In this document: positions 15,001-21,000 of the stretch, in pieces | Layout: each line of letters begins with the position of its first letter | How positions within the stretch are numbered: position 1 is the first letter of the stretch | IMG/VR virus record: IMGVR_UViG_2778261136_000011 | Direction: 5' to 3' (one strand) | Length of the DNA: 23,250 nt | Source: a virus | Lineage: Duplodnaviria > Heunggongvirae > Uroviricota > Caudoviricetes | Made by a program: the position numbers

Positions 15001-18000
15001 ATTCCTGGTCAGTAACTTCATCCGTGACGTGCAGACGGCGGTGATGAACCTGAAGGCGGAGCAGGGAAGGAGCGACGGCAAACTGAAAGGGCTGGATAAC
15101 TTATCTGCACTGGCTGTGGTGAAAGACAGCCGGTCTGCCATGTCTGCCGTATACGCCAGTCTGCGTGGTAAAACCCTCACGGGCAACGGTGCGCAGTGGC
15201 AGAAGGTGTGGAAAGAGTTTGTTGAGGACGGAGGTAAAACCGGCTGGTTTAACATGGGTGACCTTGAAGGCCAGCAGAAGGAAATGGATCGCCTTGTATC
15301 GCTGGCGAAGGGAGGATGGAAAGGCCAGAGTATCGGTGCATGGAATTCGTTCCTTAACCTTGTCGAGGATGCCAACGGGGCGGTTGAAAACGCTCTGCGT
15401 CTTTCTGCCTATAAACACGCCCGTGATGCCGGTTTGTCACGCCAGCAGGCGGCGTCTCTTGCCAAAAACATGACGGTGAACTTTAACCGTCGTGGTGAGC
15501 AGGGAGCGCTGATGAACTCGCTGTACATGTTCGCCAACGCCAGCATTCAGGGGTCCGCAAACCTGGTGAGAACGCTCGGACATCTTAATGGCGACGGGCC
15601 GTTACTGGAGCGCCTTCGCTGGAAGAATCTCAATGTACCGCAGAAAATCGCGCTTGCAGCTGTGGGAGCGGGTTATCTGCTTGGCTCGCTTAACCGCAGT
15701 GTTGCGGGGGAGGATGATGACGGGGTTAACTGGTATGACAAGGTGCCGTCTCATGTGAAAGAGCGTAACCTCGTCATTATGAAATCGGTGTTCGGGGGCA
15801 AGGCCGGAGAGTACTGGAGTATTCCTCTGCCTTACGGGTACAACGTTTTCTTCCTGCTCGGGCATACTGCTGAAGGTGTGGCGGCAGGTGACCTGACGGC
15901 GTCCCGTGCTGCCGGTAATGTTGTCGGTGGTATCCTGGGGGCATTCAGTCCTGTGGGCAGTGAAACGTCGGAAACACTGTCCGGGGCATTGCTGAAAAAT
16001 GCAGCGCCGACCATTCTGCGTCCGTTTGCGAACCTTGCCATGAATGAAAACTTCATGGGGGCGCAGATTTACCAGGAGAACATGCCGTTTGGTACACCAA
16101 AACCTGACAGCCAGCTGGGAAGACGTTCAACGCCAGAAGCGTACAAGGCGTTTGCATCCTGGCTGAATGCGTTCTCAGGTGGCAGCCAGTATCGTCCCGG
16201 CGCGGTGGATATCACACCGGAATCGCTGAAATTCTGGATTGACTATATCTCCGGAGGGACAGGGCGCTTCATTTCCAAAACCACGGATGCGGCGGTGAAA
16301 TCGCTGAATGGTATTGATATACCGGAGCAGCAGGTGCCTTTCCTGGGGAAAATTTCAGGTGAGGTGATGCCGTATACTGACCAGCAGAAGATGTACGACC
16401 GGATGACAGAGGTCGCGCAGTATCACGCAGAGCTGAAGAGTCTGACCGGTGCAGAAAGAACGGCATTCATTGACGAGAACAACGGAAAATTGTCGATGAA
16501 CGGGCTTATGCAGGATACCCGGAAGAGACTGAAGGATTTGCGCAAACAGCGCGATGCCATTTATGCCGACAGTTCTCTCAGTCTGGCGCAGCAGGCGGCG
16601 ATGGTGAAATCGGTAGAGCGGGATATGAAGGTTGCCGTGGATCGCTTTAACCGCGAGTACAACAAAAAAGTGGGAGTGGAGTAACAGAACATGCCCCGTA
16701 CGGAAGTGCGGGGCTGATTAAGAAATAAACACTCATTGACCTGTAATAACTGGAGCTATTAACATATAGTCAGAAAGAGCATTTCATGTGATACAGAGAG
16801 CCGATTTATGTTTAATGAAGAAAAAGTTGCGCAAATGGCAGCGTATTTGCTGAAAAAGCATGGCGGATCTATGCGTTTCATTAAGCTGAAGCAGCAACGG
16901 TAATGGCGAATAGCATTTATGAGCAAAATAATCTTGATATGTTATTAGGCGATCTGATGTAACCGGGATGATGTTCACCCCTGCCATTTGACATCCTCCA
17001 CGCCCTGAAGGACGGGGTTTTACAGCGCACCGGATAAGATTCGGTGTTTTGTTGAAAATACTGTGATAACAAACAGAAAACCCGTCAGTAAGACGGGCTT
17101 AGCAAGCTGGGACGGTTACTTTAATAATTTCAGTGCCTTTACATCCACTTCAACACTGCTCAGGTCTTTATCAATTTCACCCTCAATTCTTACTTTGTCT
17201 TTCGGAGAAATATTCTGCCCGGCCCATACGCTGTCATCAATATCCGTGACAATTGTCCCGCTATTGTCACGAAACTCATAACGTTCATTACCCACTTTTT
17301 TAACGATGCTCCCTTCAAGGATAACCCATGCATCATCCTTCAGTTCTTTTGCCTGCGCTACTGTTGAACGCTCTGCTTCAGGCCCTTGGAAACCGCCCTG
17401 CTGTGCAAAAGCGCCAAAAGACACACCGGAAATAAGTGCTGCAATCAATACCTTTTTCATTCATAGTCCTCTTTCAGAGATGAACATTCAAACAGCATTT
17501 TCAGTATGGTAAAGCGCGGGTGCGTTGAGGATGCCTGACACATCAGAGGTGGCGGGAGATTATTCCCCCGCCAGGTCTCTTACTTCTCAGATTCGTAGTC
17601 TACGAAGACAGCGACCTCCGTCTGACCGGTTCGGATTCCTACCTCGCAGAGGTCTTTCCTCGTTACCAGTGCCGTCACAACAACGGTAATACAGATGACG
17701 ATCAGGGCGATTAACATCGCCTTTTGCTGCTTCATAGCCTGCTTCTCCTTGCCTTTCGGCACGTAAGAGGCTAACCTACGTTTGTGAAGCATAGATTGGG
17801 CCTCAGATTAATGTTAAGCGTCCTGCAAGACGCGTAATGTTAACTGGGGCTTTTCTATGTCTGCCTTACGGCGGCATGCCCGAGGCAGACAGCCTCAAGC
17901 ACCCGCAGCAATTCTACTTAACTCTTCTTTCCCCGCAAACCGTTTTTATCCCCAGCGGCAAATCGAATACACCATCAGCGCTACCGCCATTGCAATACCA

Positions 18001-21000
18001 ACATTTGAGAAGGCTTCAGGCTAGCTCATTGGCGTACCTCCTTCGGCGGTTCTGGCAGCGGCATCCAGAATAAGGCGTTCCCTAACCACGATAAAGTGCC
18101 GTCGCTCAACTCCACGTATTCCCCTTGTACCTGTCCTGCCATATACTCGCCGTGCTTTGAATAAATTAAAATCCAATCATCTTGAGCGGGGATTTGTGTA
18201 CTACAGCTTATCCAACGAGCCGGAGTTACCGGAGAGTTGCTCGACAGCTCGTTCAACTTGTAAGTTTGGCTTACAGGTTCGGCACCATGAAGCATGGAGG
18301 CGCGGCAGGAGTTCCAGCCTCTCACCTCTGCAATAGCATCGACCGCGTACATTTTAAGAGGGTTAGGCATTGGTTTTTCTTCAGGTACTACTGGCGCTGG
18401 AGGGGCAGTGTAAAGCTGGTGCGTTCCATCAGGTAGCGAGTGACCCACATACTCACCGAACCCGTCAATACACATGCCCCCATCTTCAACAATGCATTAC
18501 GCTACAGGCTCTGCTTCCAGCGATGCCAGTGCAATCCGTGCCAGTTCTTCCGCTTCTTCTGCTGGCAGTACAACGTTGCTACCAGGTCCGTATGTTTCGC
18601 GCCACTGCTTGATTGTCAGCAGTCGCTCTTTGGTAATAGTGATCATGCCGCGTTTCCTTCTTTCTTATTAACAATTACACCGTCATATATTTCATTAAGG
18701 TGCCCTCTCAACTCCATGCGCCTTAATGCAGATAACATGTAATCGCATTCAACCTGCTTATTTCCAGTAAATGGCTTATCGTCAGGATTACCCCAACAGC
18801 AATTACCCTTGGGCCACCCATGTACTTTCCGCACTCTTCCGTTAACAACGTGAAGTAATCCCCAGCCAGCTGGTAAATCCTCAACTGAAATAATTCCCGG
18901 CTCACTAATAAAGAATCGCCAGTCGCCCATTCCAAGAGACGGATTTTTACGAAAACGCTTTTTTCTATCTGCCAACAAGTCAACACGAGAACACTTCGCC
19001 TCTATCAGGCATGATGCTGAATTTCTGAATCCCATAGCATCTGGCTGTTCTCCGGTACTGGTTACAGCTATAAAGCGGTCATGAAAACAAACCTTGAACC
19101 CGTTGCGCTTAAGGAACTTGTACGCAATCTGACAGAGTTCGCGGTGTGTTAGCGCCATATCACTCTCCTTTGATGCCAGTGTTTACAACCTGACAAGCCT
19201 CTTTGAGCACCCAGTCAACAGCGTCTTTCCATGCTCCGGTTTCGGCTGGCGGATTCTCACGTTTTACCTGCTCATAGAAGCGCACTGCTTTAACCAGTCC
19301 TTCCGGCACTACTGGCGATGGCTGTTTAGCTTCTAAATCAGCAATTCTGTCAACCACGGCATCGACAGCATCTGAAAAACTGAAACAGTTACTCCACTCA
19401 GGCCTATCCCCGGTTGCTGCAAAGTACATATCAGCTAAAGCAGACTCAGCATGGTCACGCTCATTAATGAGTTGCTCTTCGCTTTTCTCCAGTTCTGCAA
19501 TGCGCTTACTTCCATCCGCGATTACACCCTCGTAATATTCACGCTGCTCGTTGAGTTTTGATTTTGCTGCTTCCAGCTCAACGCGCAGCTTCCCTACCGT
19601 TAGCGCAATATCCTCGTTCTCCTGGTCGCGTGATTTGATGTATTGCTGGTTTCTTTCCCGTTCATCCAGCAGTGCCAAGACGGTAGCCGGATTGGCTGCT
19701 GCTATGAATCGCTTATTGGCGCGATTATCTGGCCCTGAGCATGATGCTATGTAGTAATTGGCGTTCAGTCCGGCATTGGCAATAACCCCATAGTCATCAG
19801 TACACCATTCGCCTGGTGTTGCATTTTCTGCCGCCAGCCGCAGTGCTTGATAGCTAACTCCGTTCACTTCACACCTCTCTGTTTGTTGATAAGTTCAATA
19901 TCCTGCTGGCAACTGGCGCAAGCTCGGCATCCACGAACAGCCAGGCGTCGCCGCTCATCTATCGGATCGCCACACTCGCAACAATGAGTAGCAGATGGGG
20001 CATTACTATCGGATTTGTATTTTTGCAGGGAGAGATTGCGCTGCAATTCTTCGATTTCAGCGGCATTGTCGATGATATCTGCCATTTTCCTTTCCTTCAG
20101 GCATGAAAAAAGGAGCCGAAGCTCCTTTGGTATCAGAATTCAAATTGTCTTGCTCTTAGTTGCGCCAGCATACTTCTGGCCCTATGCACCATATAGTTGG
20201 CGGGATCAAGTTTTGCTGCTTCGCGGAGCAATGTGTCGCGAGTCCGGTTGGTTATATGACGAGTCTCGTAGGCCAGATCAAACAGCTTTCCATAGTAATC
20301 AGAGTTCAGTTCTCTCATGACGGGGTATAGCTGTTTACTGAGTTGTTGTGCTTTTTCCATCCAGAGTTGAACGTAGCAGAGCAGGATGATGTCTTCTGCT
20401 GTGAATTGAGGCTGAATATGAGGTTGTGGCGGTATAGCGCTTTTTTTGCTTCACGGTCCATAATATCCAATACCCAGCGACGGAACTCTTTGGCTACTGG
20501 AGTTGTTGCGAACATAGCTACCAGGTGGGCACTGCGTAGAGAGAAAATACGCACATCTTTCTCTCGTAAGCTATTGTTGATCCCGTTGAACCTCATTTTG
20601 AGGTTGATTGACATACAAGGAGTAAACTCATCCGAATTGCGGTTGTATATCTGGGTGATTTTATCGCCGCGCGAATACTCCAGTGCAGAAGCCAAAGTCG
20701 CGGCGGTGAACCACTGTTTGCCGTCGTGTTCGATCGTTTCAAGAACGTGGGATTTGAATATGAGTTGAGTGCTCATAGTTTTATGTCCTTGTATTTTTTG
20801 TTCAGAATCCCTGTGTTCAGCAGGGCGGTCGGGTACTTGAACACCGCATACAAGAACGGCCCGTATCCTTAGCCTTGCGGCTGTTTTTCGGTATACGCGC
20901 TACCCGACCATATCTGAAAAATGGACATAAAAAATCCGCATGACTGACGGGTGCGGCTTCCGCTTGTATAGGTGTGTTCAGCACCTTGGTGCGGAATATA

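Follow-up and report, generated by a model that had tools for sequence, protein, structure and literature searches.

An intact hokW-sokW-type toxin/antisense RNA cassette in a 933W/Sp5-like prophage

We report that a conserved cassette on the minus strand (17508-17924) of a 23,250-nt caudoviral DNA sequence (IMG/VR record IMGVR_UViG_2778261136_000011; hereafter the window, i.e. the whole stretch of DNA that was analysed) is an intact copy of the known hokW-sokW toxin/antisense-RNA module from 933W/Sp5-type (Shiga-toxin-type) E. coli prophages. It carries an intact toxin ORF with an in-frame mok, an antisense gene over the mok ribosome binding site and start, and a covarying hok mRNA architecture. 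The best explanation, which we hold with high confidence, is an intact hokW/mokW/sokW-type cassette that would work as described for plasmid R1 and for the Sp5 orthologue. The module is already annotated in 933W (AF125520) and has been dissected experimentally in Sp5, and as such it is not novel.

Results

Extent of the cassette and match to the Rfam model

When the window region was compared by BLAST with 112 fetched loci, the homologue alignments began at approximately 17912-17924 and stopped at approximately 17508-17518 independently of the flanks, and the cassette was delimited as this block common to homologues in differing genomic contexts; it is found in many different prophage contexts. 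The covariance-model search proposed in the first-pass annotation returned Rfam RF01794 ("sok") at 17730-17904 (minus) over the full model (positions 1-157), with 112.6 bits against a gathering cut-off of 59 bits (E = 3e-25). Since this model is in the hok-mRNA sense (leader strand), the match falls on the minus (hok) strand; in a K-12 control it falls on the hokC strand, opposite the annotated sokC (118.3 bits), and a Sok on the minus strand, as the strand of the Rfam match might imply, was rejected on the basis of this control. Identity of at least 99% to the window allele was seen in only 3 of 5,023 matching E. coli records, and the allele was found in three unrelated isolates, of human, bovine and crow origin.

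The hok and mok reading frames

The hok gene lies at 17580-17735 (minus), as had been proposed, and encodes 51 amino acids with a Pfam PF01848 (HOK_GEF) score of 75.9 bits (cut-off 22 bits); its Shine-Dalgarno (SD) sequence, AAGGAG, is at 17745-17750 (minus). All full-length homologues examined keep this ORF open, and in the homologue alignment its third codon position is approximately 2-2.6 times more variable than the first and second. The Mok-like extension suggested earlier is also present: an ATG at 17792 opens a 19-codon in-frame extension that together with hok gives a frame of 70 amino acids (17580-17792, minus), with an SD of its own, GAGG, 9-12 nt upstream of this ATG. The extension (M..RLASYVPKGKEKQA) is present in most homologues and, unlike hok, is without codon periodicity. 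With respect to the toxin, the window Hok has Gly33; among the fetched loci, the other homologues examined carry Arg here, or His if of the hokC type. The family members HokA and HokE carry His or Thr at this position, which is thus not strictly invariant.

A second hok locus (4749-5100, with hok at 4896-5036, plus strand) is supported by a HOK_GEF score of 33.2 bits, and its Rfam sok score, 40 bits, is below the cut-off. The window accordingly has two hok-family loci on opposite strands, in keeping with the first-pass annotation.

The Sok antisense RNA and its promoter

A Sok promoter had been proposed on the plus strand, and TTGCCT (-35) and TAACCT (-10) separated by a 17-nt spacer are indeed present at 17749-17777 and identical in 933W. 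The window has exactly two copies of this arrangement, both antisense to a hok leader (0.00 expected from shuffled sequences), and the other copy belongs to the plus-strand hok locus, which is otherwise diverged. Of 50 homologues, 37 have TTGCCT at the aligned position and 42 have TAACCT or TAATCT. A generic sigma-70 and terminator scan of 17300-18100 reported no Sok promoter, no hok promoter and no terminator for either RNA. The Sok promoter was missed because its -10 hexamer matches only three of six consensus positions, and the promoter call therefore rests on homology and not on consensus strength. Two matches that the scan did return, CTGACA-17-GATTAT (17535-17563, plus) and TTAACA-18-TATGCT (17817-17788, minus), coincide with no conserved element and were treated as chance.

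Downstream of this promoter a Sok-like antisense RNA of approximately 70 nt, a putative sokW orthologue, is predicted from fold and homology at 17784-17856 (plus), both ends being putative. It would consist of a free 7-nt 5' tail (GUGAAGC), one long hairpin and the 3' end GGGGCUUUUCU. The 17784-17858 (plus) segment folds at -31.8 kcal/mol (z = -5.3) with a hairpin followed by UUUUCU, so that the antisense RNA with hairpin and U-run put forward earlier holds at the level of sequence and structure. Its position coincides with that of the annotated sokW misc_RNA of 933W (L001 2835-2905, about 17784-17854 of the window) and with that of the annotated sokC of K-12, mapped via the Rfam model. Read from the sequence, the 5' tail is exactly complementary to the mok hairpin loop and AUG, and the complement of AAAAGCCCC is nearly invariant among the homologues. 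The hairpin (helix 5) is 91.4% paired with nine pairs changed on both sides among 50 homologues; a cis-antisense helix covaries on both strands, and covariation alone therefore cannot identify the functional strand.

Structural elements of the hok mRNA

A candidate hok -10, TAGAAT, was read at 17911-17916 (minus), 7 nt upstream of the conserved GGGUGC 5' end; TAGAAT is found at the aligned position in 27 of 50 homologues and a TAnnnT variant in most of the others. The candidate -35 (TTTGCG, 17934-17939, minus) is poor and outside the conserved block. The 5' end of the mRNA, placed by homology, is predicted to be the tac element GGGUGCUUGAGG (17893-17904, minus), and the first position of the Rfam model falls on 17904.

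For covariation we used 50 non-redundant homologues from Escherichia, Kluyvera, Citrobacter, Pantoea, Photorhabdus and other sources. When RNAalifold was applied to the whole alignment (496 columns), competition between mutually exclusive structures made the consensus a mixture that kept only 2 of the 12 tac/fbi pairs; the named structures were therefore tested separately. Overall, 86.4% of their cells are paired (at most 44% when partners were slid), and 37 pairs are changed on both sides compared to 22.8 in shuffles.

Fold and covariation identify the fbi element CCUCAACGCACCC (17518-17530, minus) as complementary to tac, and the resulting 5'-3' end pairing is present in the minimum-energy fold of the full-length mRNA (z = -5.9). 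The tac/fbi helix is 93.3% paired with five pairs changed on both sides among the 50 homologues, and in the Photorhabdus loci tac and fbi are altered together (GGGCGCUUGAGA with CUCUCAAGCGCCC). The 8-bp leader stem noted previously was recovered within a few bases of its first placing, with GTCTGCCT at 17859-17866 pairing with AGGCAGAC at 17885-17892, and represents the conserved 5' hairpin of hok mRNAs. In the full-length mRNA fold it grows to 9 bp (17858-17891, minus; arms 17883-17891 and 17858-17866), and this hairpin (helix 2) has 92.7% of its cells paired, and in 15 of 50 homologues a G-C pair is replaced by A-U. When the 3' end is removed the mRNA refolds and an alternative tac-stem (17873-17904) replaces the 5' hairpin; this stem covaries as well (92.4% paired), i.e. 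both of the mutually exclusive 5' hairpins are supported by covariation.

The mok translation-initiation hairpin, the predicted Sok target, was located from the Rfam consensus structure at 17767-17804 (minus) and includes the SD GAGG (17801-17804), the AUG (17790-17792) and the loop CUUCACAAA with a YUNR-type UUCA. With manually specified pairs it is 84.4% paired, and six pairs have at least one change on both sides. A ucb-like box, CUCUUAC (17763-17769, minus), and a dcb-like box, GUAAGAG, across the hok stop codon (17577-17583) are paired by RNAalifold (columns 189-195 with 376-384), but with these pairs unchanged in 48-50 of 50 sequences, covariation offers no evidence for this predicted pairing. 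Moreover, the mok hairpin and ucb/dcb share three bases and for this reason are alternatives that cannot be counted together. Finally, a 3' hairpin, GGCGGGGGAAUAAUCUCCCGCC (17551-17572, minus), appears in both the full-length and the truncated folds; this hairpin (helix 19) has compensatory changes in four of five pairs and 97.9% of its cells paired, and, if R1 is a guide, would mark where the processed, active mRNA ends.

Comparison with 933W and Sp5

The 933W annotation places mokW, hokW and sokW at the matching positions, with 92-95% DNA identity to the window locus, and the two sequences are collinear over window 15069-18031 at 95-96.6%. The locus has the same prophage position in 933W and Sp5, between a ygiW-like gene and a DUF551 (L0139) gene and downstream of the giant tail-region ORF, and the 933W locus matches the window as the Sp5 locus does. 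The tac and fbi elements are identical in 933W, as is the Sok promoter; mok and hok are arranged alike, and the 933W locus likewise lacks a terminator after fbi. Across the cassette there are 31 substitutions, of which several fall in the Sok 5' tail/target (17786, 17787, 17793 and 17799), and there is exactly one compensatory pair in the 5' hairpin (17859 and 17890). Between HokW and the window Hok there are four amino-acid differences: L16I, I19V and the V18-V19-V20 patch, plus R33G.

For Sp5, Takada et al. (2021, Toxins 13:796, PMC8621323) show that HokW is toxic and is neutralised by sokW under the native sokW promoter. In Sp5/VT2-Sakai both the hokW and the sokW RNAs are seen on northern blots, with sokW gone after mitomycin C; HokW is detected in the inner membrane, and phage release falls by half when the locus is deleted (PMC8621323). 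RNase III and Hfq are only partially required, and smaller hokW RNAs are reported (PMC8621323). The first-pass annotation had not identified the module as the already named, annotated and characterised hokW-sokW (PMC8621323).

Comparison with other hok/sok systems

HokW is only approximately 44% identical to R1 Hok (PMC8621323). The window Sok hairpin has an extra GC-rich apical insertion of approximately 18 nt that is absent in the hokC and Photorhabdus types. The R1 system features tac/fbi end pairing, ucb/dcb, a hok coupled to mok and a short antisense RNA with a free 5' tail targeting the mok hairpin. The gene layout and RNA logic of this founding member (hok/mok/sok; Gerdes and co-workers) are as in the window, with the ucb/dcb pairing a predicted one there, whereas R1 hok/mok/sok is on a plasmid and the window locus on a prophage, and plasmid stabilisation is reported for the former compared to lysis assistance for the orthologue of the latter. 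The hokC (gef)/mokC/sokC locus of K-12 belongs to the same Rfam family and likewise has mok in frame with hok and an annotated sokC ncRNA that lies in the equivalent place on the other strand, but its DNA identity to the window locus is approximately 73% and it adjoins IS186. The closest chromosomal Hok named in annotations is hokD (relF) of the Qin prophage relBE-hokD operon, with nearly the same Hok sequence; however, hokD-type loci (L008, L092 and L114) align only from approximately 14 nt upstream of the hok ATG and are without the leader, mok and Sok region, while the window has the full leader.

Discussion

Taken from the R1 model and the Sp5 work, the proposed mechanism would start with a weak promoter giving a constitutive and stable hok mRNA that is first locked shut by pairing of tac at its 5' end with fbi at its 3' end. 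Slow 3' trimming to the GC-rich 3' hairpin would remove fbi, upon which the 5' end would refold into the tac-stem and the mok initiation hairpin would become available. As long as it is made, the short-lived Sok would dock its free 5' tail on the loop of this hairpin, and the duplex would block translation of mok, and with it that of hok, which is coupled to mok, before being cut by RNase III. If Sok synthesis stops, Hok would be translated and inserted into the inner membrane, and the cell damaged; in Sp5 this follows RecA-dependent prophage induction, with earlier lysis and an approximately doubled phage release.

A working module might nonetheless serve prophage addiction (post-segregational killing) or abortive-infection defence and not aid lysis, a role that we consider possible but the less likely of the two. 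It fits the label "prophage maintenance" in the 933W record, the plasmid stabilisation and lowered T4 plating by R1 hok/sok (cited in PMC8621323) and the presence of the cassette in many prophage contexts. The only direct experiments on an orthologue, however, show a positive effect of the locus on phage release after induction, and its deletion is without effect on growth under normal conditions (PMC8621323). These Sp5 experiments concerned growth and phage release, and the two roles could coexist.

Alternatively, the cassette could be structurally intact yet attenuated or dead, a silent passenger in which R33G weakens or abolishes Hok toxicity. Most K-12 hok loci are inactivated, Gly33 is in none of the other examined homologues and the allele is rare, as noted above. 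We nevertheless regard this as improbable, since the change is a single missense with no stop, frameshift or IS insertion, each regulatory element either equals that of the functional hokW locus or carries a compensated change, the allele is carried by three unrelated isolates, and the residue is not strictly invariant in the family. The locus is probably active in the window prophage.

The downstream end of the cassette raises another possibility. Most homologues have a terminator after fbi; none was found between hok and the downstream ygiW-like gene, which encodes a predicted periplasmic OB-fold protein (17116-17460), and this is common to 933W-type loci. With this terminator absent here, the 3' end placed for the full-length mRNA, and with it the end-pairing step, is tentative. 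The text and legends of Takada et al. (PMC8621323) give no hokW transcript sizes that would settle this 3' end. It is conceivable, although we think it doubtful, that the terminator has been replaced, such that the hok transcript runs into the ygiW-like gene and ends at the terminator beyond it (17078-17100), with fbi internal and activation deviating from the textbook route. Activation by 3' trimming would then have to differ, e.g. through endonucleolytic cleavage, the toxin mRNA and the expression of a stress-tolerance-family protein would be linked, and together with the R33G Hok the allele might behave differently from textbook hok/sok.

That there is no functional antisense RNA, and that the promoter-like hexamers and hairpin are by-products of constraint on the hok mRNA leader (the hok SD region shares sequence with the -35, and the hairpin is the counterpart of one in the mRNA), would agree with the weak -10 that fails the generic scan and with the strand-blindness of the covariation, but is very hard to reconcile with sokW on the Sp5 northern blot, with the -10 region mutation that abolished antitoxin activity and unleashed toxicity, partly rescued for growth by sokW in trans (PMC8621323), with the promoter identity to 933W and the equivalently placed K-12 sokC, and with the recurrence of the same promoter antisense to the diverged plus-strand hok.

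Conclusions

The intact hokW-sokW-type cassette marks the prophage as 933W/Sp5-like, and its value is mainly for annotation and little for discovery. In this context, an Rfam "sok" match that reports the hok-mRNA strand can lead automated annotation to put the antitoxin on the wrong strand. The R33G substitution and the absent terminator represent minor leads for work on Hok toxicity or hok mRNA processing.

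The hok and mok reading frames and their relatives

The minus-strand hok gene at 17580-17735 codes for 51 amino acids (MKQQKAMLIALIVICITVVVTALVTRKDLCEVGIRTGQTEVAVFVDYESEK), and its frame stays open up to an ATG at 17792, as read in the first-pass annotation, giving a 70-residue mok-frame product that matches the Pfam family HOK_GEF (75.9 bits; cut-off 22). For comparison, 112 loci whose product is related to this Hok were taken from genome and virus collections. Homology to the window starts at approximately 17912-17924 and stops at approximately 17508-17518 independently of the flanking DNA, which defines a cassette of approximately 415 nt. 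Loss of the Hok ORF among homologues had been named as evidence against a hok locus; in all full-length homologues examined the ORF is uninterrupted, and its third codon position is approximately 2-2.6 times more variable than the first two. The 19-codon mok extension is present in most loci and displays no codon periodicity in the homologue comparison, as expected if its translation matters and not the peptide. Codon 33 of hok (17637-17639, minus strand) encodes Gly (GGA), while Arg (CGA) or, in the hokC type, His stands at this codon in the other homologues examined; Gly33 differs from 933W by a single C-to-G change, and the allele is common to three unrelated E. coli isolates. Carriers of the allele include E. 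coli 2013C-4282, RM10410 and O22:H8 strain 154.

Three E. coli chromosomes match the 601 bases surrounding the locus with 100% identity; annotated there are a Hok/Gef family protein, a DUF551 protein and a YgiW-family protein. Over the same region the Stx2 phage 933W (GenBank AF125520) is 92.3% identical, with mokW, hokW and sokW annotated at the corresponding places, and Sp5/VT2-Sakai is as similar as 933W. Within the cassette 31 positions differ from 933W. None of them lies in the Sok -35, spacer or -10 or in the tac or fbi box; at the pair 17859/17890 both bases have changed jointly (G-C in the window, A-T in 933W). Window 1-20408 and a prophage of E. coli 2013C-4282 are collinear, the gene order being tail-fibre genes, lom, the first hok, a 2,807-aa ORF, a ygiW-like gene, hok (17580-17735), DUF551, Ea22-like, TraR/DksA and antirepressor genes, and the window ends at the prophage-chromosome junction at a ynfG remnant. 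The hok/mok/sok reading is correct, and the locus is a known, annotated and experimentally characterised module.

The Rfam sok model and its strand

In a whole-window Rfam scan the covariance model RF01794 ('sok') matched above its gathering score at 17730-17904 on the minus strand (112.6 bits, gathering 59, E = 3e-25, full model), the only strong match in this region. This is the hok strand, opposite to that proposed for Sok. As a control we used E. coli K-12, where sokC is annotated opposite to hokC/mokC and the RF01794 match lies on the hokC strand, reaching from the 5' end of its mRNA as far as the hok AUG; the 933W match is likewise on the hok strand. The matches in the window, in the comparison locus L115 (502-654) and in the 933W locus L001 (2781-2955) thus run antisense to the annotated Sok RNAs (sokC, sokW), which shows that the model represents the hok-mRNA sense; a match is evidence for the leader, hence for the complement of the leader. 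Automated annotation based on RF01794 would assign the antitoxin the wrong strand and excess length.

A putative Sok-like antisense RNA

The promoter-like sequence TTGCCT-17-TAACCT is present on the plus strand at 17749-17777, where it had been proposed. Only two copies of the pattern are present in the 23 kb (0.00 expected), each antisense to a hok leader. A putative Sok-like RNA, starting approximately 7 nt past the -10, would span 17784-17858 (plus strand); its predicted fold (-31.8 kcal/mol, z = -5.3) has a free 5' tail of 7 nt and a single long hairpin, with UUUUCU after the hairpin. These positions, predicted from sequence, agree with the ends of K-12 sokC mapped through the RF01794 model (approximately 17787 and 17860) and with the 933W sokW feature (approximately 17784-17854). 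The RNA would be an exact complement of the mok SD (17801-17804) and AUG (17790-17792), and its free tail GUGAAGC lies opposite the hairpin loop CUUCACAAA, which includes a UUCA of the YUNR type. A generic promoter/terminator scan missed the putative Sok and hok promoters, whose -10 and -35, respectively, are weak, and it found no terminator.

Four substitutions relative to 933W (17786, 17787, 17793 and 17799) fall in the Sok 5' tail/mok-loop recognition region. Since Sok is encoded in cis, antisense RNA and target change together, and this could insulate the locus from the Sok RNAs of other hok loci. The number of matching places per E. coli genome has a median of 2 and reaches 10.

Predicted structure and covariation of the hok mRNA

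The 8-bp leader stem noticed earlier, at 17858-17893, is formed by GTCTGCCT (17859-17866) and AGGCAGAC (17885-17892). The minimum-energy fold of the full-length hok mRNA has z = -5.9. For the covariation test we imposed this minimum-energy structure of the window on 50 non-redundant homologues, in which 86.4% of the cells pair, compared to at most 44% with slid partners, and 37 pairs have changed on both sides vs 22.8 in shuffles. The end pairing between tac (17893-17904) and fbi (17518-17530) is 93.3% paired with compensatory changes at five pairs, the 5' hairpin is 92.7% paired, and the Sok/target hairpin is 91.4% paired with compensatory changes at nine pairs; in the 3' hairpin four of the five pairs show such changes. 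Without the last approximately 40 nt, the 5' end is predicted to refold into a different hairpin. Covariation is seen both in this alternative 5' stem (92.4% paired) and in the hairpin of mok initiation (84.4% paired). That selection acts on two 5' structures which cannot form together is the hallmark of the hok refolding pathway. Pairing of ucb (CUCUUAC, 17763-17769) with dcb (GUAAGAG, 17577-17583) is also predicted; these pairs are invariant and so carry no covariation signal either way.

Most homologues have a clear terminator after fbi (e.g. 925-942 in the comparison locus L087), which in the window and in 933W-type loci is replaced by sequence running into the ygiW-like gene. No minus-strand promoter or terminator was detected in the region 17461-17530, between hok and this OB-fold gene (17116-17460), and the next minus-strand terminator (17100-17078) lies beyond it. 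The 3' end of the full-length hok mRNA is therefore uncertain; a single transcript may cover both hok and the ygiW-like gene.

A second hok locus and the antirepressor array

That the element carries two hok loci on opposite strands is correct. The other, a diverged hok/sok-like cassette at 4749-5100 (plus strand), has an ORF at 4896-5036 for a 46-aa Hok with a HOK_GEF match (33.2 bits), a leader from 4749 that scores 40 bits with RF01794, below the cut-off, and a predicted mRNA fold with 5'-3' end pairing (z = -6.6). TTGCCT-17-TAACCT, identical to the pattern at 17749-17777, recurs at 4862-4890 (minus strand), and the putative antisense RNA is predicted to fold well (z = -7.0). The search for an in-frame mok extension at this locus was negative. 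The locus occurs in 198 phage records, where it is mostly labelled hypothetical, and some of these phages also carry hokW; the two-hok arrangement is common in Stx-type phages.

Apart from the hok loci, window 20408-23250 holds a tandem array of antirepressor-type cassettes in which AntA units repeat approximately every 530 bp; the last few hundred bases of the window are chromosomal, i.e. the ynfG remnant. The array has one unit more than the closest genomes, E. coli O22:H8 strain 154 and RM10410 (99.9% identical match, 2,423 bp vs 2,951 bp in the window), and several more than E. coli 2013C-4282. Four minus-strand Rfam matches to RF02221 'sRNA-Xcc1' (20819-20909, 21697-21782, 22225-22310 and 22762-22850; 68.6-73.4 bits, gathering 53) each adjoin an antirepressor-type ORF on the minus strand, either immediately upstream of it or at its miscalled start (Bro-N 20315-20776; AntA 21033-21818, 21906-22346 and 22434-22721). 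In 933W one copy lies upstream of an ant-like gene, and a paper on an APSE phage describes one ahead of an ORF6N protein. The RF02221 family may represent a cis-acting 5' leader of antirepressor-like phage genes, and not only an integron sRNA.

Proposed mechanism

Following the established R1 model of hok/sok regulation and the experiments on the Sp5 orthologue, the full-length hok mRNA would be closed by its end pairing and opened by 3'-end trimming; Sok binding would then shut off mok, and hence hok, and recruit RNase III, and once Sok is gone Hok would be made and inserted into the inner membrane. In Sp5, HokW is toxic and is neutralised by sokW expressed from its own promoter, a protection that is abolished by mutation of the -10 region; northern blots show both RNAs, with sokW gone after mitomycin C, HokW appears in a RecA-dependent manner approximately 1 h ahead of endolysin, and deletion of the locus halves phage release (PMC8621323). 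Additional roles in prophage addiction and in the exclusion of other phages are possible.
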